A DNA stretch of 64,000 bases from Candidatus Pacearchaeota archaeon (GCA_023144035.1 JAGLGM010000003.1:15876-79875); one strand, 5' to 3'. Counted from the first letter of the stretch, positions 1-62,073 are shown. Program-made: numbers and translations. The notes: generated from the sequence alone by a model not told the origin.

Positions 1-613
1 ATGAAACTTTTACAGAATCTTTATTTTCTTCAAAATGTCCAAATAACTTTTCGTAAAGTTCTTTTATTTTATCTTTAATACTAAAATTCTTTTTTGGAAG
101 TGAAATTCCTACTTCTCTAAGTGCATTTTTATTTATAATTTCTTTCTTAATTCTTCTATTTTCTGTCACAATTGCTTTATTTAATGCTTCCATTAATTCT
201 TGAAGTGTGACTTTTTTAACTCTTGACATAGGGGTTTTAGGAACTAAAATGGGGATTTCTTCATCTAATTCAATTCTTTCTAAAACATGTTTTTTTTGTT
301 CTTTTGCACCAAACAAGATTTCATCTATGCTCTTCAAATGTTTGTTTAAAAGAATTTCTGACTTAATTCTTAATAAAAGTGCAGCTGCTAATAATACTTT
401 ACTAGATACAAAAAAATCTGCTTCTTCTAAATTTTGTATTTTTTCTAAATATCTTTCTGTTAAAATAGTAATATTTATGTTCCAAGGGTCTAATTGTTCT
501 GTATTTATGAGATCATAGATTATTTCTTGCCAACCTATTTCTCTATTAAATAATAAATCATGAACTTGGTCTTGTTTTATACTATTTTTTGAAGGATCAA
601 CCTCTTTTTCCAT
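1..613 (-). CDS. scpA: Segregation and condensation protein A (ScpA kleisin), N-terminal part; gene runs off the window start
   Basis: Minus-strand frame from ATG (complement of 611-613) reads MEKEVDPSKNSIKQDQVHDLLFNREIGWQEIIYDLINTEQLDPWNINITILTERYLEKIQNLEEADFFVSSKVLLAAALLLRIKSEIL..., the ScpA N-terminal motif (LDPW-I-I). Absent from the ORF track only because no stop lies inside the window. Confidence 0.6.
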   Translation of the reverse strand, partial: MEKEVDPSKNSIKQDQVHDLLFNREIGWQEIIYDLINTEQLDPWNINITILTERYLEKIQNLEEADFFVSSKVLLAAALLLRIKSEILLNKHLKSIDEILFGAKEQKKHVLERIELDEEIPILVPKTPMSRVKKVTLQELMEALNKAIVTENRRIKKEIINKNALREVGISLPKKNFSIKDKIKELYEKLFGHFEENKDSVKVS

Positions 614-682: not shown

Positions 683-859
683 AGATAACTGATGTGTTTT
701 AAAAGGAGTTACCTGCATTACTACTTTGGGTTAAGTACTGCCTGTCATTCTATAAGGGTAACATGATAGAAAGGTTTAAATAGTTCATGAGACTCTATTT
801 TATATCACCTCTTTTTGCCCAGGAGACGCTTCAGATCAGCTTTTTGTCGATTTGAAGAT

Positions 860-874
860 TCTCCCAGGGTTATA
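860..874. repeat. attL-like 15-bp direct repeat
   Basis: Exact match to 9051-9065. Confidence 0.55.
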
Positions 875-905
875 TGTTTTACTTTAAAACTCTATGAATA
901 TAATA

Positions 906-1145
906 TTATTTTTCGTTATTTTTTAACGTAATTAACCTCCTTCTAATTGTATGTTTTTGACCAAATAAATCGAATGTATACTCTTTTTTAACATCATCTG
1001 GAAACGCCTTTTCTAATTTTGCTTGAATCCATTTACCTAATGGTGCAATTAACTTATTTCTAAAATCTTCTAAATCTACATCTTTAAAATCTTTATCGGA
1101 TAAAAATTCAATTTCAATTCTATATGCTTTTGTTTTATTTTTCAT
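906..1145 (-). CDS. Hypothetical small protein, possible partner of the upstream RHH protein; start at 1145 (MKNKTKAYRIEIEF...) or 1163
   Basis: ORF track 906..1163. The internal ATG at 1145 overlaps the TGA of the upstream small ORF as ATGA (translational coupling). Confidence 0.45.
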   Translation of the reverse strand: MKNKTKAYRIEIEFLSDKDFKDVDLEDFRNKLIAPLGKWIQAKLEKAFPDDVKKEYTFDLFGQKHTIRRRLITLKNNEK

Positions 1146-1279
1146 TTTTGTTTCTTCTTCCAAAAATCTATTAATCTTACAACAACATCATCATATGTTT
1201 CTCTTCTAGATTGTTTCAACTTATCTAATTTTATTTTAGTTTTCTCTTCTAAACCGACTAACTTAAGTGGTTTTTTCAT
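1142..1279 (-). CDS. Ribbon-helix-helix (CopG/Arc-like) small DNA-binding protein, 45 aa
   Basis: Hand translation MKKPLKLVGLEEKTKIKLDKLKQSRRETYDDVVVRLIDFWKKKQK* gives a beta-strand then two helices typical of RHH. Below the ORF-track size cutoff. Confidence 0.4.
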   Translation of the reverse strand: MKKPLKLVGLEEKTKIKLDKLKQSRRETYDDVVVRLIDFWKKKQK

Positions 1280-1320
1280 ATATTTTAATAGATTTTAATG
1301 TATTTAAATCTTTATATGAT

Positions 1321-1468
1321 ATAGAATGTGTGTTTTTCCGTCGCTGTTATATAAAATAGATTATATATAATTTATTATAAGAGTGTTTATATACGATAAA
1401 ACATTAAAATATATATAAGTCAAAAAAATAAGATAACTAAATGTCCATTTTGCGACGCTGTTTATAAT
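1321..1468. promoter_or_regulatory. Iteron-like repeated motif cg(t/a)cgctgtt(t)ata(t)aaat upstream of the Rep operon; possible origin or operator
   Basis: tttccgtcgctgttatataaaat (about 1326-1348) and ttttgcgacgctgtttataataaat (about 1447-1471) in an AT-rich spacer. Confidence 0.3.
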
Positions 1469-1540
1469 AAATTGAAAGACTTCTGATAGATAATAAATAC
1501 CTTTGATATTTTACAGAATTGAAAAAGGAGGTAAAAGAAG

Positions 1541-1747
1541 ATGGACATAAAACAAATAAAAAAATATGAAAATAAAAAAGTAAGAGTATTTCTTAATACT
1601 AACGATTATACTTATATTCTTGATAGTTTACAAATTATTGACGATGAAGTAGAAGGATTTGATATTAAAAATAGGAAGATAACATTATCTCCTGAAATAA
1701 TTATAGGGATTATTCCATTATCGGGAATAAGCGATGGTCAACACTGA
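1541..1747 (+). CDS. Hypothetical protein (element)
   Basis: ORF track. Overlaps Rep start by 14 nt. N-terminus (KQIKKY) echoes the N-terminus of the next ORF (EQIKKY). Confidence 0.4.
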   Translation: MDIKQIKKYENKKVRVFLNTNDYTYILDSLQIIDDEVEGFDIKNRKITLSPEIIIGIIPLSGISDGQH

Positions 1748-3320
1748 ACAAATTAAAAAGTATGGATCTCTTAATGAAATTGAAAGAGTTATTTATAAAA
1801 TACAGGAAAGAGGATATGAAGATTCTAATAAAAAAGAACATGAGTGGGATTTCTTTAGTGATGCTGGATTAAATGACGAAGTAATATTTGATAAATTTTC
1901 TATTAGTTCAAATATTACTGATAATGAAAGAAAAACATTTTTCAATCTTAAACAAGAAGACCAATATAAATTTATAGATAATGCTCGACAATGTTTTTGT
2001 GAAAAAAATGGAAAATATAGTGAATATTTATTAATGAAACAAAGAGAAGAATTAGAAAAAAATAATTTAATTGTTCCTGAAGAAATAAAAAATATTGAGG
2101 AATTTATACAAAATAATTCAGTTAGTAAATTGAAAAGGATGAAAGATAAAATTTTAATTGATATATCTAATATAGATGATGAAGTTACACAAACTTATTT
2201 TATTAGAATGTTAGCTGAAAAGACAAAATTAGTATATAAATCATTATATAAAAAAATAATTGAATTAAAAGATGAATATAAAGTGAGAGTTACAACATCT
2301 GTATCTGATTTATTAGGTATGAATGTTCCAGAAGTAGATTATTATATTGAAAATTTAATTCCAAAAGGATGTTTAATTTTATTCGGTGGAAAACCAGGAC
2401 AAGCTAAAAGTTTAACAACTCAGCATATGTTTTTGAGTTTATTTACAGATAGTTATTTAGATAAGTTTAAAGTAAATAATAACAATAACAATATAAAATT
2501 ATTAGTATATGATTTAGAAAATAATTTAGAACATGTTTTAGCGCCAAGACTTCAATATATTGCTAAAGGTTTAGGATTAACACAAGACGATTTAAAAGAT
2601 AAATTTGATGTTTATGCTGATTTTAATAAGAATAATATGAAATTTGAACTAGAAAGAACTAAAGATTTTGATATAATTATCTTTGATAGTTATAAGAGAT
2701 TTTTAAGAGGAACTGAAAATGATTCTACAGTAACAGATAAATTTTATCAAGAATTCTTGAAACCTTTAACAGATGCAGGAAAAACAATAGTAATAATTCA
2801 TCATTTTAAGAAATCTAATATGGAAGACTTAAGTGAAGAGTTTTTATTAGATTTGTTTCGTGGTTCATCAGATATTGCTTCACAAATTGATTTAGGTTTT
2901 GGAGTATTTAGAACTCCAGAAATTATTAGTGATGATTGTAAAACTACTAGATTTGAAACTTTTATTACTAAAATTAAAAATCGGAGAGGTTTGCCTGTTA
3001 AATCTTTTACATATAAAGTATTAAAAGATGATAATGAAAAGAAAACTACATTTGAATTTGGTGAATTTGGACATATTACATCACCAAAAGAAAGAAATAA
3101 GATATTAATTTGTAAGTTTATTGAAAGTAAAAATGATAAAGTTCCAAGACAGAATATAATTGATTATATGAAAAATGAAACTAATGGTCAGTTATCAGAT
3201 ATATCTGTCATTAATTATTTAAAGGAATTAGTTTCGGAACAGATATTAAGTCAACCGAACCATGGATTTTACAAGTCAAAACAATTTCAGAACATAGAGT
3301 TGGAAGAGGTAAAGAAGTAG
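1734..3320 (+). CDS. RecA-like P-loop NTPase, replication-associated (DnaB/RepA-like helicase of mobile elements)
   Basis: Walker A GGKPGQAKS, Walker B IIIFDSY; element context. Confidence 0.6.
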   Translation: MVNTEQIKKYGSLNEIERVIYKIQERGYEDSNKKEHEWDFFSDAGLNDEVIFDKFSISSNITDNERKTFFNLKQEDQYKFIDNARQCFCEKNGKYSEYLLMKQREELEKNNLIVPEEIKNIEEFIQNNSVSKLKRMKDKILIDISNIDDEVTQTYFIRMLAEKTKLVYKSLYKKIIELKDEYKVRVTTSVSDLLGMNVPEVDYYIENLIPKGCLILFGGKPGQAKSLTTQHMFLSLFTDSYLDKFKVNNNNNNIKLLVYDLENNLEHVLAPRLQYIAKGLGLTQDDLKDKFDVYADFNKNNMKFELERTKDFDIIIFDSYKRFLRGTENDSTVTDKFYQEFLKPLTDAGKTIVIIHHFKKSNMEDLSEEFLLDLFRGSSDIASQIDLGFGVFRTPEIISDDCKTTRFETFITKIKNRRGLPVKSFTYKVLKDDNEKKTTFEFGEFGHITSPKERNKILICKFIESKNDKVPRQNIIDYMKNETNGQLSDISVINYLKELVSEQILSQPNHGFYKSKQFQNIELEEVKK

Positions 3321-3535
3321 TATAATATGTCTATATTATATATATTTATTATTTTATTTATATTTTATATATAATTAGAATCAAACATATAGAGAATCTA
3401 TATAATATAGGCAATGTGTTGGCGCAAAAAACAATCTAATAGGTGGTTAAAACGCAGAAATTCAACTAAAAACTAAAAATATATTTTAATATATTTATAT
3501 AAATAAAAAGGGAATAGAGTATTTAAATTTTTAAA

Positions 3536-3772
3536 ATGGAAGAAAAAAAGAAAATATCGACAACATTCGCGAGAATTGGAAGTATGGGTAAATCAAAAAT
3601 AATTACAATCCCAAAATCTATAAAAGATATGAATGCAGGGGACGAAGTTTTAATTATCAAAATGAATATGGAATTAATTGACTATCTTAAAAAATTAGTT
3701 GAAAAAGATTTTGTCAAACATAATATAAAACTTGAGTGGATTGATTATTTAAGGCGAAAAAGATTTAGTTAA
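3536..3772 (+). CDS. AbrB/SpoVT/MazE-type swapped-hairpin DNA-binding protein
   Basis: RIGSMGKSKIITIPKSIKDMNAGDEVLI motif. Confidence 0.5.
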   Translation: MEEKKKISTTFARIGSMGKSKIITIPKSIKDMNAGDEVLIIKMNMELIDYLKKLVEKDFVKHNIKLEWIDYLRRKRFS

Positions 3773-4329
3773 TACCCAACAGCTTCCACACCATATTCGG
3801 CTTGCTCTCTTGTAAACCCCCCATATTCTAATTGTTCAATTAATCCCTCTCGTGAAAATGGCATAATATCTAAATAAGATTGAGCCGTTAATGTAGCTTG
3901 TTCATTCCAATCAGCCCCACAATTATCTACTCCATATAATGCTTGTTCATGAGTGTATCCCTCATATTCTAATTGTTCAATTAATCCATTATAAGAGAAA
4001 GACATAACGTTCAGATAAGATAATGCACTGTCCAATGCATTCTTTTCACCTATTGTTGTTTCATCAGATTCTTTTACAGCTGGTGTTGTTGTTTGTGTTG
4101 GTGTTGTTGTTTGAGTATTTGAATTATCTGTTGATACAAGATTTTCTGAATTATAATTATCTGAAATTGTATTGGTCTCTTGGGTTTCCTCTTCAAAAGT
4201 CTTCACAACATTAGCAGTTTGAGAAAATGAATCAGATATAACATTGACTACACCCAAAAACATGAAACCTACAATTACCCAAAACCACCATTTTTGATAG
4301 AAGGTTTTATCCTTTTTTTGTTTTTCCAT
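3769..4329 (-). CDS. Ltp-family (prophage superinfection-exclusion lipoprotein-like) membrane protein with two Ltp repeats
   Basis: N-terminal TM helix, Thr/Pro-rich linker (TQTTTPTQTTTP), then two repeats: SALSYLNVMSFSYNGLIEQLEYEGYTHEQALYGVDNCGADWNEQA and AQSYLDIMPFSREGLIEQLEYGGFTREQAEYGVEA. Confidence 0.6.
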   Translation of the reverse strand: MEKQKKDKTFYQKWWFWVIVGFMFLGVVNVISDSFSQTANVVKTFEEETQETNTISDNYNSENLVSTDNSNTQTTTPTQTTTPAVKESDETTIGEKNALDSALSYLNVMSFSYNGLIEQLEYEGYTHEQALYGVDNCGADWNEQATLTAQSYLDIMPFSREGLIEQLEYGGFTREQAEYGVEAVGY

Positions 4330-4330
4330 T

Positions 4331-4882
4331 TTAATAATAATTTACCTCAATTTCATCTTCTCCATATCCTGTAATAATGCAATCAGATATTTTTTTATCA
4401 GATTCTTTAATATAAATTTCTATAATGGCTTTAGTTAATTCATAATCTTCTAATCCATTTTCATTTACTTCAACATCTTCTACTTTTTCCCCTTCTTCAT
4501 CTTTTACTGTAAATTCCATTTCATTCCATTCTTCAACTAAATTGTTAAAATCTTCTGACGCAGTATCATTAAAACCTAATGAAGCCACCCCACACATTAT
4601 CTCAGTCATTAATTCAGTCGCATCTCCAAAAAAATCATTATAAATTATTTCTTCTTCAAAATAAAGTCTCATATCCAGTGAAACTTCTTTTGTTAATGAA
4701 TTTTTAGTAAGGATCACTGTACTATTTTCATCCGAGTATTCTATAATTTCTATGTTAGATTTATTTGATTGTTTATTAAACAAGAAAAAAGATAAAACTA
4801 TAATCAAAATAATAACTGCAACTCCTCCTATGATTAAACTTTTATTTTTTATATTTAATTTAGATGTCATTAATTGCCCCAA
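4331..4882 (-). CDS. Membrane-anchored hypothetical protein (N-terminal TM, acidic C-terminal domain)
   Basis: ORF track; hydrophobic segment IIGGVAVIILIIVLSFFLF. Confidence 0.45.
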   Translation of the reverse strand: MGQLMTSKLNIKNKSLIIGGVAVIILIIVLSFFLFNKQSNKSNIEIIEYSDENSTVILTKNSLTKEVSLDMRLYFEEEIIYNDFFGDATELMTEIMCGVASLGFNDTASEDFNNLVEEWNEMEFTVKDEEGEKVEDVEVNENGLEDYELTKAIIEIYIKESDKKISDCIITGYGEDEIEVNYY

Positions 4883-5631
4883 TTCTTAATCAAACCTTTA
4901 GGAAGATTTTCAATAAAAGTAACAATTTTATCAACAATAGATTCGAGCCAAGAAGTTCTATTTTCTAATTCTACATTTTGTTCTTCTAATTCTTCAACTT
5001 TTTGTTCAAGTTCAGCAACTCTTAATTCTAATTCGTTTGGTTGTGGAGGTTCTTCAGATTCTTCTTGTTCTGTGCAAATTATAAAATTATCATAATCCAT
5101 ATGACCTATTCCATTATGACCAAAAACTGTACCAATATAAACTTCATGTTCAACATTATTATTTATTGTATGTGTAGTTACTTCATTAAATGTGATTTGT
5201 CCTTCTCCAAATTCTATTTTATTATGATATTTTTCAAAAGGACGACAAACTCCATCCCAACATCCTCCTAATCCAAATCGGTATTGATTATCCACTAAGA
5301 ACATATTCACTGAATTTCCTTCTGCATAAATAAAATTAATATCATATTCCAACATATCTCCTGCTTTGAATTTATATTTTGGGACTAAATATGTTCTATG
5401 GTCTCCGAGAATTGAATCCTGTCTTGTATGAAAATTTTCTAAATCAGCATCTAATCCAGAATCAGCTATAAATGGTTGTCCTTCATAATCTTTCCTAATT
5501 TCCCATTTACTTGTATCTAAAGTATCAGATGAAAAATCATCATAAACTTCACAAACTTGCACAGCACTAATTAAACTAATCAATAAAATTGGTAGAATTA
5601 AAGTTAATACAATTTTGCTCTGTTTTCTCAT
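4870..5631 (-). CDS. Secreted hypothetical protein with signal peptide and C-terminal coiled coil
   Basis: N-terminal signal KIVLTLILPILLISLISA; heptad-like ELELRVAELEQKVEELEEQNVELENR. Confidence 0.45.
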   Translation of the reverse strand: MRKQSKIVLTLILPILLISLISAVQVCEVYDDFSSDTLDTSKWEIRKDYEGQPFIADSGLDADLENFHTRQDSILGDHRTYLVPKYKFKAGDMLEYDINFIYAEGNSVNMFLVDNQYRFGLGGCWDGVCRPFEKYHNKIEFGEGQITFNEVTTHTINNNVEHEVYIGTVFGHNGIGHMDYDNFIICTEQEESEEPPQPNELELRVAELEQKVEELEEQNVELENRTSWLESIVDKIVTFIENLPKGLIKNWGN

Positions 5632-5703
5632 GTATTTATATTTTATTTAGATTATTTAAATCTTTTTATCTGTTACGCTTCTGTCACTCTTTCTTTTTAA
5701 GAA

Positions 5704-5943
5704 TTGTTACGCTATTGTTTCATGAAAAAAGAGTTAAAATTGGAGATATTCTTAAAGAAAAGTGAATTAAGAAGAAATGTTTGGAAACAATTAGATAAAT
5801 CAAAAACTGCTTCTGAAATTTCTAACGAAGTAGATAAGCATAGAAGTGCTGTAAGCAGAGTTCTTTTAGACATGCAAAAAGCAGGATTTGTGAAATGTAT
5901 TAATCCAGAAGATAAGAGTTTCAGGTGTTATGTGAAGAGATAG
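5704..5943 (+). CDS. Winged-helix transcription regulator (ArsR/MarR-like); start may be the internal MKKELK
   Basis: TASEISNEVDKHRSAVSRVLLDMQKAGFV HTH. Confidence 0.5.
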   Translation: MLRYCFMKKELKLEIFLKKSELRRNVWKQLDKSKTASEISNEVDKHRSAVSRVLLDMQKAGFVKCINPEDKSFRCYVKR

Positions 5944-6135
5944 AAAAATTACAAATAATAGAGCTTTTATTTTGTTATAATTTTCCCTCTATAAAAACAC
6001 CAAAAAACAGGCAAATACTTGATATAACGAGAGAAAAAGAGGTTACCTATACTATTTATCAACTAAGAGAAGTTGTTATGTTTTTAGAGTTGTTATATAA
6101 TTATAAAAATTGTACTTTAATAGTTATTTTAGAAA

Positions 6136-6495
6136 ATGGCAAATGAAACTAAGGCAATTAAAAATATAAAAGTAACAAAAAGGGAATGGAATAATGTTGG
6201 AAACCTTATTGATTTCTTAAAATTTAGATATAAAAAGGAAGATGATTTTGTTAAATGGTTAATAGGAATCGCTTTAGTATTTTTATTTTCTTCTAGTGTG
6301 ACAAATGTTCTAGAGAGTCAAACAGATTGGATTAGAACCACTGGAGTTGTTATTTTTATTGCTTCTATAGTATTTATTGTTCTATTACTTATTATTCAAC
6401 ATTATATTGATAAAGCTCAAATAGAAGTTATGAAATATCTCTACAAACAAAAAGATAAAAAGAAAAAGGTAAAAGGAAAAACTAAGAAGAAATAG
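6136..6495 (+). CDS. Small membrane protein with Lys-rich tail
   Basis: Two hydrophobic helices, KKKKVKGKTKKK tail. Confidence 0.4.
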   Translation: MANETKAIKNIKVTKREWNNVGNLIDFLKFRYKKEDDFVKWLIGIALVFLFSSSVTNVLESQTDWIRTTGVVIFIASIVFIVLLLIIQHYIDKAQIEVMKYLYKQKDKKKKVKGKTKKK

Positions 6496-6709
6496 AAAAT
6501 TAATGACCTATTGGGCCCCTGAATATTTCTTTAAACATTAATATCAAAAAAGTTAATAATATTGCCGAAAAAATTATCTCAAACCATTTTCTCTTTATAA
6601 ATTTTAAAAACTTATTCATAAAGATTCTACGAATTTATTATATTTAAATATGGGCGTTTCTAAAAAGAAAAGTATAAAATTGTTGGATTCTTAATTATCT
6701 TGATTAAAA

Positions 6710-7726
6710 ATGCCTAGTTTTGAAGAAATATTTGGATTAGCAACATATTTGAAAGAAATAGAAAATTTAAAAATTAATTTAAGAGTTAATTTTAATGGAG
6801 TATTATTAACTGCTTTGTATTTTAAAAATAAGTCTGAAGAAAAAGAAAGAAAAGATAAATTTTTTAATAGAAATAAAGAGATAATTGAAGAAATAAATAA
6901 AGAGATAAATAAATTTAATTTAAAATTAAAGGAAAAATACAAGTTTTTGCCTCTAAAGTCTCTTGAAATAATTAATCTTGAATATATTAAAAAAATAATT
7001 TATGAACATCAAGGAAAAGATTCAACTTCAAGAAAATACACTCTTCTCCAACTAAATAATTGTTTATTAGATTTTGAAAATTCGATTAAGAATTTTCTTG
7101 ACTCCTTTGAAATCCAATTGATACCATTTAAAGGGAGAGACGTTACAGATTTTCTTAATGAAGAAAATGGAATAATGGTAAAAGAAGCTTTTGATATTTA
7201 TAGTATTGGATATTTCGGAACTGCTGTTTTCTTAATGGGAAAATGTCTTGAAAAAAACATCACAGATTTTCTTAAAAAGAATGTTAATAAAAATAAAATA
7301 AAATATCCTTTAAATGAAATTGAGAAATGTACTTTCCATCAAAAAATAAACATCTTAAAAAATGAAACTTTTATTTCTGAATCAGATTATTCTAAGATTA
7401 TGTCTATCAAATGGGAGAGAAATATTGCAGTTCATCCTTCTAAAAAAGAAGAAATAGAAAAATTGATGGCAGATTCTAGTGGGACAATAACTCTCTGTAT
7501 TAATCAGATTATTAATTTCCAAAAGAAAATAGAAGAAGTGAAAAGTGAGGCTGAAATCCAAGAAGAAAAAGCAAGAGAATTGCTTGGGGGAACGTCGGGA
7601 GGAGGAATTCCAATATTATATGGAAAAACTCCAGAAGAAAATTTAGAATTGCTTAAAAGCTATGGTGGGAAAAGAATAGAAGAAATGAGGGAAAAATTAA
7701 GAAAAGAAATTGAAGAAACAAAATAA
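6710..7726 (+). CDS. Hypothetical protein with HEPN-like Rx4H motif (possible RNase / abortive-infection-type)
   Basis: KWERNIAVHP (R-x4-H) in the C-terminal half; coiled-coil-rich; adjacent to integrase. Confidence 0.4.
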   Translation: MPSFEEIFGLATYLKEIENLKINLRVNFNGVLLTALYFKNKSEEKERKDKFFNRNKEIIEEINKEINKFNLKLKEKYKFLPLKSLEIINLEYIKKIIYEHQGKDSTSRKYTLLQLNNCLLDFENSIKNFLDSFEIQLIPFKGRDVTDFLNEENGIMVKEAFDIYSIGYFGTAVFLMGKCLEKNITDFLKKNVNKNKIKYPLNEIEKCTFHQKINILKNETFISESDYSKIMSIKWERNIAVHPSKKEEIEKLMADSSGTITLCINQIINFQKKIEEVKSEAEIQEEKARELLGGTSGGGIPILYGKTPEENLELLKSYGGKRIEEMREKLRKEIEETK

Positions 7727-7739
7727 AAAATAAATTTGT

Positions 7740-8900
7740 TTATACCCCTAACTGACTTTCAATACTCTCTAAGATTTCACCTTCTTCTGTGATTTCAAAG
7801 ACTTCTGGATTTTCCTTCATTCTTCTATGTAATTTTTCATTAAACTTTATAATATCTCTTATTTTTTCTTCAAACCTTTTCTCCATATCTTCCATCTTGA
7901 TTTCTAACTCATGCTTTTTTTCTTCCGAGATTTCTTCAACATGATACACTTGTGATAAAACTGCATCACGCATATCATCATTATCTATATGAGTGTATCT
8001 TGCACCAATATTTGAATTTGGTGAATGTCCTGAAAACTTTTTTGCTAATGGGTTCGAAATTGTCTTATACATTTGAGTTAACTTTGTATGTCTAAATAGA
8101 TAAGGAAATATCGGTTTAGTTATTCCTGCTTTCTTTCCAAGTTCTTTAAAATACATAGACATGCCTGAACTACTAACTGGCTTACTTCTATTTCTTGGAG
8201 TCGGAAAGATAAAATCATTGTCTGAAACATTGGGAAAAGGAAACTCTTGTTTATATCTCTTCAAATGAATTATAGATTCATTCAAAGGAATTGTTCTTCC
8301 TCTACTTGTTTTAGAACTAAATAAAGACATTTCTTTACTTTCAAGATTTATAGAACTCCATTTTGCTGTTCTAACTTCTTCTGTTCTTGCCCCAGTTTCA
8401 GAAAGTAGACTAATTAATGCCTTATATCTTAGTTTTTCGGCTGTTCTAATTAATAATTCAAGCTCTTCAGCAGTAACTAAACTATTTTTGTTTATTTTTC
8501 TGTCTATCTCTTCTCTCTTTTTCTTAATATCTATTAGTTCTTTAAATCTTGATGACCAATCGTCATAATGAAACTTCAAAAACCTCTTTAGAACCTTCTT
8601 AATATCGTTTTGAGTAGGCACAGATATTGAAGAATTGTTAAGAATTACTAAAAATTCTCTCAAATCTTTTAATTCCAGATTGTAAAGAGATTTTTCCATA
8701 ACATCATAAATTTGATACATTTTCCTTTCAATCATATCAAGAGCGTGTGAACAAGCTGACATGCCACAATAATCTACAAAAGATTCTATAGTTTCTTTAT
8801 CTTTATCAGACATAGATTTACCAATTGTCTCTTTCAGAGTTATAATCTTACCATTAACTCTTCTCTTTTTTAAGTTATAATTTGGAAATTCTTTTTTCAT
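7740..8900 (-). CDS. Tyrosine recombinase / phage-type integrase
   Basis: LLSETGARTEEV (Arg box I), FRHT (box II), GHSPNSNIGARYTHI (catalytic Tyr region). Confidence 0.8.
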   Translation of the reverse strand: MKKEFPNYNLKKRRVNGKIITLKETIGKSMSDKDKETIESFVDYCGMSACSHALDMIERKMYQIYDVMEKSLYNLELKDLREFLVILNNSSISVPTQNDIKKVLKRFLKFHYDDWSSRFKELIDIKKKREEIDRKINKNSLVTAEELELLIRTAEKLRYKALISLLSETGARTEEVRTAKWSSINLESKEMSLFSSKTSRGRTIPLNESIIHLKRYKQEFPFPNVSDNDFIFPTPRNRSKPVSSSGMSMYFKELGKKAGITKPIFPYLFRHTKLTQMYKTISNPLAKKFSGHSPNSNIGARYTHIDNDDMRDAVLSQVYHVEEISEEKKHELEIKMEDMEKRFEEKIRDIIKFNEKLHRRMKENPEVFEITEEGEILESIESQLGV

Positions 8901-9050
8901 TTTATCCTCATTGTTTATTAAAATTTTGAAAAATATTTATTATAAATAAAACGATTTTTTCGTTTAAAAATACATTTAAAATACTTTATAAATAATCTAT
9001 TATATATAATAAATTATAATTCATAGAGTTTTTTAAGTAAATCTTAATAA

Positions 9051-9065
9051 TCTCCCAGGGTTATA
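9051..9065. repeat. attR-like 15-bp direct repeat
   Basis: Exact match to 860-874. Confidence 0.55.
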
Positions 9066-9178
9066 ATCACTTTAAATCATATTTAATAGAAAAGTCGTGG
9101 ATTAAGTATTTAGTTTTTATTATATGCTCCCACGCATCACATTCTTAAGAAATTAATTTATAAAATAAATAGAAATTA

Positions 9179-9622
9179 TTAGTCTTTAAACTTTTCTAAA
9201 TAAAATTCTTTCTTCTCAAAATTCATAACTAAATTATATTTTCTTTCTCTTAAAAAATCAGTTCCTATTATTATTGGAAAATGTCCCAATTCGCTTTCTT
9301 TCTTTTTAGAAGTAGGTTTTAAAACTACACAAGGAAAAGGTTCTATAACCATTTCTTCTTTTTCATTTATAATTATAAACTCAAAATTATTTACTTCATA
9401 AGCATTATATTTCATACCTCCTAAACAAACTATTTTAGAAAACTTTTTATTAAAAGGAGTTTGTAATCTCAAAGCTTTATCATATGGAATAACTGTTTTT
9501 GGACTTCCAGTATCTATTACAAAAGTATCAGGAATCATATTTTTTCTATAGCTTCTTAAAAGAGCAACATTTCCATATTGTTCTTCATTATCATTACCTA
9601 TGTTTATTAAAGGTATTCTCAT
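9179..9622 (-). CDS. Retropepsin-like (clan AA) aspartic protease
   Basis: FVIDTGSPKTVIP, the D-T/S-G active-site signature. Confidence 0.55.
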   Translation of the reverse strand: MRIPLINIGNDNEEQYGNVALLRSYRKNMIPDTFVIDTGSPKTVIPYDKALRLQTPFNKKFSKIVCLGGMKYNAYEVNNFEFIIINEKEEMVIEPFPCVVLKPTSKKKESELGHFPIIIGTDFLRERKYNLVMNFEKKEFYLEKFKD

Positions 9623-9858
9623 TAGAAAATAACAATTTCTTTACCAGAACTAACTTGTTTAATTAAAAGATTGTTACTATCAATCTTTTTATATTTAAGA
9701 GAAGAAAGCAACTCATTCATATTTTTCCCATTAGCAACTACCTTTTGACTTTTAATTGCTACCACATCTCCTAAAAACTTCTCTTTTATTTTATTTAAAT
9801 TAAGAATAAACCATTTAAGATCTTCTGAAGAATCTTTGAGAATTTGTAATTCTTCCAT
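9622..9858 (-). CDS. Hypothetical small protein, translationally coupled (TAATG) to the aspartic protease
   Basis: ORF track; its stop overlaps the protease start. Confidence 0.4.
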   Translation of the reverse strand: MEELQILKDSSEDLKWFILNLNKIKEKFLGDVVAIKSQKVVANGKNMNELLSSLKYKKIDSNNLLIKQVSSGKEIVIF

Positions 9859-13637: not shown

Positions 13638-13726
13638 GGATGCGTAAGTTAATGTTAGACTATGTGGCTCCAGAATTTTTAACATGGAGTTACCACAAAG
13701 CGAGGGTTAGATTCCCTCCGTGTCCA
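13638..13726 (+). tRNA. tRNA-Trp (anticodon CCA at 13670-13672) with 18-nt intron (13674-13691) after position 37
   Basis: Acceptor ggatgcg/cgtgtcc (two G-U), discriminator A, D-stem agtt/gact, anticodon stem tgtgg/ccaca, loop ctCCAg, T-arm gaggg-ttagatt-ccctc. Intron atggag pairs with anticodon-loop ctcca (BHB-like). Confidence 0.6.
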
Positions 13727-16236: not shown

Positions 16237-16430
16237 AAATCACAAATAAAACAAAAATAAACAAATTGCTTGAAAAAAATCCTGAAGCAGCTGAAATTTT
16301 ATTTGAAGCTGGTATGGGTTGTGTGGGTTGTTCTATGGCTATGCATGAAACAATTGAACAAGGTTGTTTAGCACATGGAATGACAAAAAAACAAATTGAA
16401 AAATTAATTAAGGAGTTAAATAAGAAATGA
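16233..16430 (+). CDS. DUF1858-type redox disulfide small protein
   Basis: GMGCVGCSMAMHETIEQGCLAHG. Confidence 0.5.
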   Translation: MKITNKTKINKLLEKNPEAAEILFEAGMGCVGCSMAMHETIEQGCLAHGMTKKQIEKLIKELNKK

Positions 16431-18004
16431 TGAAATATTCTAAAAAAGTTATGTGTGAATTTCTCAAACCTAAAAACATGGGAGAAATAAAAAATCCAGA
16501 TGGAGTTGGAAAAATTGGAAATCCTACTTGTTTACTTCCAGATGAAAAAATTTGGTTAAATGAAAGTTTTGAAGCAATTAAAAAAACAAATAAAGGAGAT
16601 ATGGTTTTATCACATGATTCTACTGAAAATAAGATTTTAGGAAAATTTTCTAGAGAATATAAAGGAGAAATAATCAGACTAAAAAATGCGCTTGGGAATA
16701 TTTTTCTTACTCCAGAACATCTTGTTTTTGCAATGCGTATTCCAAAAGGAGATAAATTTAAAAGAAATAAAGGTAAAAAACAATTGATTCCTTCATGGTA
16801 TCATGCTGAATATTTGAAAAAAGGGGACATAATATTATATCCTTTTTCAAGAAAAGAAAAAAATATTAAATATTTGACAATAGATATCCCAAAACCCAAA
16901 TATGATTTTAGGAGCAAAAATATTCCAAGTAAAATCTCTCTTAACATGGATCTTTTGAGGCTTTTTGGTTACTTTCTCTCGGAAGGAAATATTCAAGATA
17001 AACCATCTAAAACATATATTTCTTTTGCGTTGCATATTAAGGAGAAAGAAATTGTCGAAGACATAAGAAAGATTGTTAAAAGATTATTTGATTTAGAAAT
17101 AAAATCCAAAGAAAGAATAAAGGAAAATGGGGTCGTTGTTTATATTTACCATGCTCAATTAGCAAGATGGTTTAAAAAATTATTTGGAAATGGTACTCAA
17201 AATAAATATTTACCTGAATTTATAATGCAATTACCCATATCAAAACAAAAAGCATTGATAAAAGGTTTGTGGAAAGGAGATGGATGCATCAATGTGAATC
17301 GTATTGGACCAAGAGCAGGCTATGTTACAATTTCATATAGATTATCTCAACAAATAAAAATCCTTTTACTAAGGCAAAAAATAATCTCTTCATTTTATAT
17401 TGAAAAAGAAAAAAAATCCAAATGGGCTAATCATAAAGAAGCTTATAGAATTCATGTGGGACAAAGAGATTCTCTAAAAAAATTATGTAAAATTTTAAAT
17501 TTAAAACATTGCTCAAAATCTTATGAGTCTATTAGTTCTTGGATTAACAATAATTTTTTATATACCCCTATAACTAAAATAGAAAGAAAAAATTATAAAG
17601 GAAAAGTATATAATTTAGAAGTTGAAAAGACCCATTCATTTATTTCAGAAAGTTTTTGTCTTCATAATTGTGGCGATGTTATGTGGGTTTATATTAAAGT
17701 TAAAAATGATAAAATTACAAAAATCAAATTTAAAACATTTGGATGTGCTGCTGCAATTGCAACATCTTCTATGGTTACTCAACTTGCTAAAGGAAAAACA
17801 ACTAAAGATGCTAAAAAAATTAAAATAAAAGATGTGGCATCTTCTTTAAAAGGATTACCTCCTCTAAAAATGCATTGTAGTGAACTTGCAACAGATGCTT
17901 TAAAATTAGCAATTAAAGATTATGAAAAAAAGAAAACTAATAAAAAGAAAAATGAAAATAGAACAAAAAGTAAAACAAACTTTGAAAAAGATAAAGTTAA
18001 ATAA
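16427..18004 (+). CDS. iscU: Fe-S cluster scaffold IscU/NifU-N, interrupted by an intein; Lys-rich C-terminal tail overlaps the next gene
   Basis: N-extein YSKKVMCEFLKPKNMGEIKNPDGVGKIGNPT; C-extein CGDVMWVYIKVKNDKITKIKFKTFGCAAAIATSSM…LPPLKMHCSELATDALKLAIKDY. Confidence 0.8.
   Translation: MMKYSKKVMCEFLKPKNMGEIKNPDGVGKIGNPTCLLPDEKIWLNESFEAIKKTNKGDMVLSHDSTENKILGKFSREYKGEIIRLKNALGNIFLTPEHLVFAMRIPKGDKFKRNKGKKQLIPSWYHAEYLKKGDIILYPFSRKEKNIKYLTIDIPKPKYDFRSKNIPSKISLNMDLLRLFGYFLSEGNIQDKPSKTYISFALHIKEKEIVEDIRKIVKRLFDLEIKSKERIKENGVVVYIYHAQLARWFKKLFGNGTQNKYLPEFIMQLPISKQKALIKGLWKGDGCINVNRIGPRAGYVTISYRLSQQIKILLLRQKIISSFYIEKEKKSKWANHKEAYRIHVGQRDSLKKLCKILNLKHCSKSYESISSWINNNFLYTPITKIERKNYKGKVYNLEVEKTHSFISESFCLHNCGDVMWVYIKVKNDKITKIKFKTFGCAAAIATSSMVTQLAKGKTTKDAKKIKIKDVASSLKGLPPLKMHCSELATDALKLAIKDYEKKKTNKKKNENRTKSKTNFEKDKVK
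16529..17668 (+). other. Intein (380 aa) with LAGLIDADG homing-endonuclease domain, inserted in IscU between GNPT and CGD
   Basis: Starts CLLPDEKIWLN (block A), LTPEHLVFA (block B TxxH), LFGYFLSEGNI and LIKGLWKGDGC (LAGLIDADG blocks). Ends …VYNLEVEKTHSFISESFCLHN followed by extein Cys. Confidence 0.75.
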
Positions 18005-29171: not shown

Positions 29172-29264
29172 GGCTCCGTAGCTCAGCCTGGCAGAGCACT
29201 GGACTTTTAGTTGGTAAAACAAGAAGTTATCCAGGTGTCGAGGGTTCAAATCCCCCCGGGGCCA
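29172..29264 (+). tRNA. tRNA-Lys (anticodon TTT at 29206-29208) with 19-nt intron (about 29210/11 to 29228/29)
   Basis: Acceptor ggctccg/cggggcc, discriminator A, D-arm gctc-agcctggca-gagc, anticodon stem ctgga/tccag, loop cTTTTag, T-arm gaggg-ttcaaat-ccccc (one A-C mismatch). Intron aagaagt pairs with actttt. Confidence 0.7.
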
Positions 29265-61921: not shown

Positions 61922-62073
61922 GCCCAGATCGCATAGTGGTTATTGCACCGGATTGCTAAGCACAGGACACCTCAACGGTTTCCTACCGCACTACCTTCCC
62001 TTAATGGATTGTAGAAGTTAACGCAAAGATCCGGACCCTTCGGGGTGCGTAGGTTCGACTCCTACTCTGGGCG
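61922..62073 (+). tRNA. tRNA-Ser (anticodon GCT at 61955-61957) with about 70-nt intron (61960-62029) and long variable arm
   Basis: Acceptor gcccaga/tctgggc, discriminator G, D-loop with GG, anticodon stem ccgga/tccgg, loop ttGCTaa, variable arm acccttcggggtgc, T-arm gtagg-ttcgact-cctac. Intron 3' end gcaa pairs with ttgc (BHB-like). Confidence 0.65.
61964..62004 (+). other. Second copy of the 41-nt element, inside the tRNA-Ser intron
   Basis: See 32997-33037. Confidence 0.5.

Follow-up and report, generated by a model that had tools for sequence, protein, structure and literature searches.

An integrated block beside scpA

We analysed a 64,000-nucleotide stretch of DNA (the window) from a Pacearchaeota (DPANN) metagenome contig of 142 kb (ENA ERZ23498471, scaffold_21), in which a candidate mobile element is inserted beside the host gene scpA. 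The candidate element is bracketed by exact copies of the 15-mer TCTCCCAGGGTTATA on the + strand (860-874 and 9051-9065), spaced 8,191 bp apart. Between the repeats lie eleven open reading frames (ORFs), among them an intact tyrosine integrase gene at the right end, and host genes flank the block on both sides: scpA on the left, and on the right a DUF5678 gene and a gene for a retropepsin-like protease, followed by the genes for S27ae, S24e, Spt4 and RpoE'. The coordinates of all features are collected in Table 1.

Table 1. Features of the element, its attachment sites and the adjoining host DNA (window coordinates)
Feature	Position	Strand	Basis
5' part of host scpA, cut off by the window edge; adjoins the element on the left, outside it	1-613	-	ATG at 613; full gene on source contig, PF02616 SMC_ScpA
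Conserved DNA block TACTAC ... TGTCATT n6 AAGGGTAACA upstream of the RNA promoter	719-763		Alignment A1, 74 loci
Predicted promoter of the RNA gene: B recognition element (BRE)-like AGAAAG and TATA box TTTAAATA	768-782	+	(C/A)GAAAg-N-TTTA(A/T)ATA kept in 74 loci
Predicted small RNA gene, ~70 nt: 5' tail AUCACCUCUUUUU, hairpin 818-869, then UU(AUA)	~804-874	+	Model R1, covariation, promoter
attL core (left 15-bp repeat; 3' arm of RNA hairpin and 5 nt)	860-874	+	Repeat search, alignment
Left inner inverted repeat ACTTTAAAACTCTATGAAT, putative integrase-binding arm	881-899	+	Partner 9019-9038; similar arms in family attP sites and L042
ORF, 85 aa, no family match	906-1163	-	ORF call, Pfam, PHROGs
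ORF, 68 aa, N-terminus (MDIKQIKKYE) similar to the one encoded by the following gene (MVNTEQIKKYG)	1541-1747	+	ORF call, repeat D1
Replication protein: RecA-like AAA_25 helicase domain and C-terminal region	1734-3320	+	Pfam AAA_25 7.1e-16
ORF, 78 aa ('AbrB' of the initial annotation), 49% identity to related element L113	3536-3772	+	tblastn; no Pfam match at E<=0.01
Ltp-type surface lipoprotein, two Ltp repeats	3769-4329	-	Pfam Lipoprotein_Ltp 6.8e-30; phrog_4980 superinfection exclusion 3.1e-40
ORF, 183 aa (p183), N-terminal membrane anchor, no family match	4331-4882	-	ORF call, Pfam, PHROGs
Secreted protein, 253 aa (p253): signal peptide, predicted concanavalin-A-like/GH16-like beta-sandwich, long C-terminal coiled coil	4870-5631	-	AlphaFold2 model
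Winged-helix regulator, TrmB/ArsR type	5704-5943	+	Pfam TrmB 4.5e-5, HTH_5 9.4e-5; 71% identical to ORF in family locus L162
ORF, 119 aa (p119), two hydrophobic segments	6136-6495	+	ORF call
DUF4145 protein with RNIAVH (Rx4H, HEPN-type) motif	6710-7726	+	Pfam DUF4145 4.1e-8; motif read in translation
Tyrosine integrase, 386 aa, intact, XerA-like catalytic domain	7740-8900	-	Pfam Phage_integrase PF00589, 2.4e-24
Right inner inverted repeat ATTCATAGAGTTTTTTAAGT	9019-9038	+	Partner of 881-899
attR core (right 15-bp repeat)	9051-9065	+	Repeat search
Host right flank with hairpin ~9093-9140 (CGTGGA...TCCCACG), then T-run on the - strand	9066-9178		72-73% identical to DNA directly 3' of the RNA gene in L085, L090

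The window contains no third copy of the 15-mer, and a search allowing up to two mismatches gave no extra match; two or more matches were obtained in none of 100 dinucleotide shuffles. The similarity extends beyond the repeats, with ACTTTAAA located 6 nt past the left copy and 3 nt past the right copy. Just inside both ends there is an inverted repeat of 19-20 nt, its left arm being the reverse complement of the right arm with one indel. In a circular form of the element the core would lie between these arms, which is the usual layout of an element attachment site (attP). The predicted junction sequences are AAGTAAATCTTAATAATCTCCCAGGGTTATATGTTTTACTTTAAAAC for attP and GATTTGAAGATTCTCCCAGGGTTATAATCACTTTAAATC for the chromosomal site (attB). 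An initial annotation made from the sequence alone had listed the 15-mer at both positions, the similar bases behind each copy, a complete tyrosine integrase beside the right repeat and the host genes outside, and all of these were confirmed; with two copies in the window, the 15-mer is not a frequent word.

Related loci were collected with a ScpA scan using one genome per species, which yielded 80 loci with 63-83% ScpA identity, all from metagenome-assembled genomes labelled Pacearchaeota, Woesearchaeota or Nanoarchaeota. The rpoE'-spt4-S24e-S27ae operon was found directly upstream of scpA in 63 of the 80 loci, and the gap between S27ae and scpA across those loci ranged from 283 nt to 9.4 kb. 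The block itself is not found in these relatives. When the window flanks (800-874 and 9066-9178) were joined at a single core, they were collinear with the uninterrupted DNA of loci L085 and L090, which belong to other species and not to the same strain. Right of the junction, 80/111 and 83/113 positions were identical, compared with 59/113 and 50/103 for element DNA used as control. Thus, the empty site anticipated by the initial annotation is present in related genomes.

A predicted small RNA gene at the target site

Neither ARAGORN nor a search with the Rfam tRNA model (E<=10, on 500-1100 and 8880-9400) found a tRNA or tmRNA gene near either end of the element. This agrees with the initial annotation, which had concluded that the target looks intergenic. 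The latter view has to be revised, since the left repeat appears to be the last 15 nt of a conserved and structured small RNA gene with a promoter of its own. A region of 158 nt (~717-874) has 70-82% nucleotide identity in almost all of the 80 loci, and the surrounding intergenic DNA is not alignable. In the alignment of this region (A1) the BRE/TATA motif is followed by a variable spacer of ~21 nt, the invariant ATCACCTCTTTTT, a hairpin and GGGTT. The 5' tail of the RNA, 13 nt in length, is invariant. The end of the TATA box is 21 nt away from the conserved ATCACC, which is much like the 23 nt seen at the tRNA gene at 61922; judging by the promoter motif, transcription would therefore start near 804. 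The 3' end can be placed approximately at 871-880.

The consensus structure in A1 is limited to the hairpin at 818-869, which comprises 20 bp. A covariance model (R1) has a single match in the window (800-877, 85 bits) and found exactly one copy per locus in 77 of the 80 scpA loci. Covariation was computed on a model-based alignment of 82 RNA copies (A5), in which 90.7% of the hairpin cells pair, compared with 75.5% in shuffles, and in 14 of the 19 hairpin pairs both partners have changed. The score for covariation was 0.444 versus 0.157 in shuffles (0/500 reach the score), and controls with a slid structure did not exceed 0.146. On the + strand there are many G-U and U-G pairs but few non-pairs, which points to the + strand of the window as the transcribed strand. 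From this compensatory pairing on one strand, the promoter and the sequence conservation we infer an expressed RNA with a function. The att core comprises the last 10 nt of the hairpin 3' arm and five more bases. Since it thereby covers the 3' arm of the terminal hairpin, the strategy resembles the one used at tRNA genes, applied to a different stable RNA.

Rfam contained no match for the window copy of the RNA at E<=10, nor for five homologous loci at E<=1. Comparison by eye with K-turn, C/D box, H/ACA, split-tRNA and signal recognition particle RNA gave no reading that fits the hairpin. The 5' tail is similar to the 3' end of 16S rRNA. A role of the tail as Shine-Dalgarno decoy was considered and found no support: GAGGTGAT, which is complementary to it, is no commoner than shuffled 8-mers. 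Leaving aside the RNA gene, it has only ~10 copies in the 1.17 Mb that the related loci comprise, and one in the window.

The conserved block at 719-763, TACTAC ... TGTCATT n6 AAGnGTAACA, was rejected as part of the RNA, since RNAalifold gave no consensus RNA structure on either strand; it is probably regulatory. A look-alike of this block, CTCTTGTCATTCTAGAAGAG, is located ~25 nt from the attP core on the circular-looking L116 (5232-5260). Further upstream, the DNA that separates the RNA gene from the start of scpA contains two copies of GTAGTGGATAAA at a distance of 22 nt (648-659 and 670-681), and relatives have GTAGTGCCTA twice at the matching position, e.g. L042 (9745-9790). The paired repeat is probably a regulator-binding site common to the divergent promoters.

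The integrase family and its att sites

The integrase gene was not split by integration and lies 150 bp from attR. The residues R172, K197, Y267, R270, H292 and Y302 are invariant across 32 aligned family members, and all catalytic residues of the tyrosine recombinase set R-K-(H/Y)xxR-(H/W)-Y are present in the window protein. Homologs are few: ~40 were found among 5.8 billion proteins, the closest with 56% identity. In about 20 of the relatives' loci the motif CTCC(C/T)AGGGTT precedes the integrase gene by ~20-85 nt and is in most cases flanked by inverted repeats, as in L131 with GGGGTTTTCCTAAAAC-CCTCCCAGGGTT-TTAGGAAAACCCC. The core occurs in both orientations relative to the integrase gene, and the window shares its orientation with L116, L120, L125, L126, L130 and L139. 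Terminal direct repeats are present on three relatives' contigs (L116, 12,147 bp; L139, 9,514 bp; L159, 7,058 bp), which we take to be assembled circles; in L116 and L139 the core is found next to the integrase gene. A search for the 15-mer in IMG/VR returned 22 matches, which were discarded as chance matches that come without the RNA gene, inverted arms or related proteins.

Other insertions at the RNA gene and at tRNA-Glu

The RNA gene is followed by foreign DNA in several other genomes. In L152 the RNA is followed by an integrase gene, and a 13-bp repeat of the RNA end adjoins S27ae 10.6 kb away. An integrase gene is also located directly 3' of the RNA in L129, L145, L160 and L015. L042 contains a 6.4-kb island without integrase at the RNA 3' end (3103-9549), bounded by 16-bp repeats with inverted arms and encoding an LD-carboxypeptidase, a radical S-adenosylmethionine enzyme, two class II aminoacyl-tRNA synthetase-like proteins and a methyltransferase. 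An arm of the element type (ACTTnAAAnCCCT-like) follows right after the RNA in at least eight further genomes. In addition, att cores are duplicated beside the RNA gene, 50-80 nt apart in L030, L069, L072, L086 and L088 and 1.46 kb apart in L023; possibly, these are scars of earlier integrations followed by deletion. Taken together, the parallel insertions, the arms and the duplicated cores show that the site is used repeatedly.

Distant members of the integrase family (33-37% identity) are located directly after tRNA-Glu genes in L135 and L156, and in L135 15-bp repeats bound 5.4 kb at this gene. The family thus holds both types of target, tRNA-Glu and the small RNA. A different insertion point at the same locus is seen in L077 (1414-10001), where the RNA gene adjoins S27ae and an insert of 8.5 kb lies between the RNA and scpA, on the promoter side; this insert encodes a distantly related integrase (24% identity) as well as a winged-helix homolog.

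Proposed integration mechanism

We consider it very probable that 875-9065 is an 8.2-kb integrative, plasmid-like element of Pacearchaeota that docked at the 3' end of a small RNA gene. The integrase (7740-8900) would have recombined the attP of the circular element with the chromosomal attB. The attP core TCTCCCAGGGTTATA would have been located ~150 bp upstream of the integrase gene, between the inverted arms of 19-20 nt, and attB would be the last 15 nt of the separately transcribed RNA gene (~804-874). Since such an exchange is conservative, the left junction would rebuild an intact RNA gene behind its own promoter, and the right junction would keep the 15-bp copy only. The point of strand exchange is a prediction, and the window copy may or may not still be able to excise and replicate.

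As to the target itself, the balance tips slightly towards an undescribed, order-wide RNA of ~70 nt with a strong promoter, probably essential, onto which a DPANN element family moved from tRNA-Glu.

Replication module, cargo and neighbouring genes

The RecA-like replication NTPase seen in the initial annotation was substantiated by the AAA_25 match of the replication protein (Rep), and the same holds for the winged-helix regulator, the Ltp-type protein and the HEPN-motif protein, for which the matches are given in Table 1. Less of the remaining gene assignments stood: the AbrB and ribbon-helix-helix regulators had no Pfam match at E<=0.01, and the iteron-like repeats upstream of Rep turned out to be two-copy repeats of 11-15 nt only.

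Among the 26 homologs of Rep, 14 are annotated fusions of Prim-Pol and AAA_25, and most are 570-740 aa long; helicase-only proteins occur as well. The window Rep appears to be a replication helicase that has lost or replaced the primase-polymerase domain. The PDB contains no solved relative of it. The starts of the 68-aa ORF and of Rep are 70% identical over 37 nt (1532-1568 vs 1728-1764) and encode similar N-terminal peptides, which suggests a local duplication in the replication module. Replication modules differ among the relatives, with a D5-like primase-helicase in L139 and L152, an archaeo-eukaryotic primase (AEP) in L159 and a rolling-circle Rep_1 protein in L116.

The cargo appears to be of the surface and exclusion type, comprising the Ltp protein, a secreted lectin-like protein and the HEPN/DUF4145 protein. 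The lectin-like protein, p253, was modelled with AlphaFold2 at a pLDDT of 90.4, and Foldseek matched the model to GH16 glucanases, the ERGIC-53 lectin and carbohydrate-binding modules, and also to viral tail or structural proteins, which share this fold. Among DPANN archaea p253 has 26 homologs. The model fits an oligomeric carbohydrate-binding surface protein and is not diagnostic of a virus. PADLOC defence models gave weak matches on the element, at the level of the winged-helix domain only.

In the right flank, the DUF5678 and retropepsin-like aspartic protease pair (9179-9858, between attR and S27ae) was found at the same place in only one of the 80 loci, L083; these are thus variable genes and not part of the core synteny. 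The hairpin and T-run at ~9093-9140, which are kept in L085 and L090, are probably the terminator of the protease/S27ae operon. Elsewhere in the window there are three long tRNA genes, presumably with introns (13638-13726, 89 nt; 29172-29264, 93 nt; 61922-62073, 152 nt), one of which was detected by ARAGORN, its anticodon not named. According to the gene table of the source contig, L001 contains a NifU-like gene (1619-3196, ~16427-18004 of the window) that is split by an intein with a LAGLIDADG endonuclease domain.

Alternative explanations

Several observations weigh against a mobile element docked at an RNA gene. Base composition does not distinguish the block from its surroundings, and there is no discontinuity at its ends. 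Near-identical contigs in sister samples all carry the element: no circle and no empty site of this very element turned up, and each of the 12 contigs with the neighbouring protease gene either includes the element or stops within it. The window Rep has no Prim-Pol domain, and its alignment to the homolog P0071 starts only at window residue 146. The closest relatives of the integrase, in L113 and L117 (55-56% identity), have no recognisable core on the sequence at hand. Finally, the expression of the RNA is a prediction from promoter and covariation.

Some of these points would also be expected if the block were a decaying, immobile remnant of an integrative plasmid that became fixed in the population, an explanation that we regard as possible, though rather unlikely. 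Since Rep has no Prim-Pol domain and its N-terminal peptide is duplicated, the module seems to be rearranged, and autonomous replication is doubtful. In the population all contigs have the element integrated, and the integrase-less islands and scar-like duplicated cores at the same site in other genomes are in line with this reading. On the other hand, the two att copies do not differ at any of their 15 bp, and the inner inverted arms come close to a perfect match. The integrase has its full length with all catalytic residues in place, none of the eleven ORFs is interrupted, and helicase-only Rep proteins are not confined to this element.

It is less probable still, and on the whole unlikely, that the element is a provirus, i.e. 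a temperate Pacearchaeota virus whose virion proteins are too divergent to be recognised, with Ltp, p183, p253 and p119 as parts of an envelope like that of small membrane-vesicle-like archaeal viruses. Membrane or secreted proteins are indeed encoded by four of the eleven ORFs, Ltp matches phage superinfection-exclusion families, and the fold of p253 is shared with viral tail and structural proteins. Relatives of the element moreover encode large unannotated proteins of 774-1076 aa, and L113 has a long array of small ORFs in a single direction. Searches of the element proteins against Pfam, PHROGs and NCBIfam found no capsid, portal, terminase, packaging ATPase or known archaeal virion protein, however, and the lectin fold of p253, the one protein that was modelled, is generic. 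A profile search with the integrase family in IMG/VR gave three matches only, all distant (26-28% identity), and family members share almost no genes besides the integrase and have replication modules of plasmid type. Because no virion hallmark was found and p253 is not diagnostic, we label the element integrative and plasmid-like. Of the earlier reading as a provirus or integrative plasmid, the site-specifically integrated element with att repeats and plasmid-like character was retained, and the provirus found no positive support.

The hairpin at the att site might also be a DNA-level element or a terminator, for example of the convergent ribosomal-protein operon, which would make the target truly intergenic. 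In most genomes a convergent operon ends where the hairpin lies, and the RNA is known here from sequence alone. Nevertheless, we consider this explanation very improbable. The G-U and U-G pairs that are common on the + strand would be A-C mismatches on the strand of the S27ae operon. The transcribed strand is opposite to that operon, so that the hairpin would not serve as its terminator, and the operon has its own hairpin and T-run further downstream. A BRE/TATA motif is conserved at the right distance upstream of the invariant 13-nt tail. Furthermore, L046 and L090 have the unit as a whole, including the upstream block 719-763, in inverted orientation to scpA and the other neighbours, as expected for an independent gene.

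That the 15-bp repeats are due to chance or are a duplication artefact in an ordinary piece of chromosome can be dismissed almost entirely: the AT-rich, repeat-prone background is the sole point in its favour, and against it stand the uniqueness of the repeats, the empty sites in relatives, the core common to the integrase family and the parallel insertions with their own repeats.

Comparison with known systems

A 2021 review of archaeal tyrosine recombinases describes attB sites mainly in tRNA genes and some in intergenic or protein-coding sequence (PMC8371274). The term 'non-coding RNA' is absent from this review and DPANN archaea are not mentioned; for tRNA genes, Williams 2002 is cited (PMC8371274). 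We found nothing specific in the literature on DPANN integrative elements or DPANN small RNAs.

The element at 875-9065 shares much with those of archaeal integrases that target tRNA genes. A tyrosine integrase gene is located beside attP, attP and attB have a short identical core, and integration leaves the integrase gene whole. A stable-RNA gene with dyad symmetry overlaps the core with its 3' part; this gene is rebuilt and keeps its promoter. Distant members of the integrase family even reside at tRNA-Glu (L135, L156). The difference lies in the target, which in the window would be a hairpin RNA of ~70 nt without an Rfam family.

Bacterial islands and prophages integrate into tmRNA (ssrA) or small-RNA genes. 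There too, a stable RNA gene other than a tRNA serves as conserved docking site and has its 3' end restored by the element, whereas the domain of life, the RNA and the integrase family are different, and the window is negative for tmRNA with both ARAGORN and Rfam. A similarity to pRN1-type plasmids is seen in the Rep family, which includes the fusions of Prim-Pol and AAA_25 (14 of 26), some of them beside integrases. Unlike pRN1-type replicons, the window Rep has no Prim-Pol domain, its homology begins only at residue 146, and D5-like, AEP or Rep_1 proteins serve for replication in relatives of the element. For the catalytic domain of the integrase, archaeal XerA is the closest solved or curated relative (4a8e, 1.5e-13; also 5hxy; NF040815, 96 bits). 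The 96 bits stay far below the equivalog cut-off of 220 bits, and, unlike XerA, the window integrase is 100 aa longer and is encoded in a mobile element beside its own att site. The mechanism, a tyrosine integrase that restores the 3' end of its target, is therefore known; what is new is the class of target for archaea, the host group and the unlisted RNA.

Implications

The genomes of DPANN archaea are very small, and very few mobile elements are known from this group. The locus described here gives a defined integrase/att system for Pacearchaeota, and the core CTCC(C/T)AGGGTT picks out integrated as well as apparently free elements in metagenomes. It also presents an archaeal integrase family with tRNA-gene or other stable-RNA targets, which bears on how target specificity shifts. 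The RNA itself, which is conserved very strongly, would be an unlisted small RNA of a lineage from which almost no non-coding RNAs are described beyond tRNA and rRNA, and the invariance of its 5' tail across genera suggests an important function. If an undescribed RNA indeed serves as the docking site, it would be a recurrent hot spot of integration and might provide a handle for finding plasmids and viruses of DPANN archaea.

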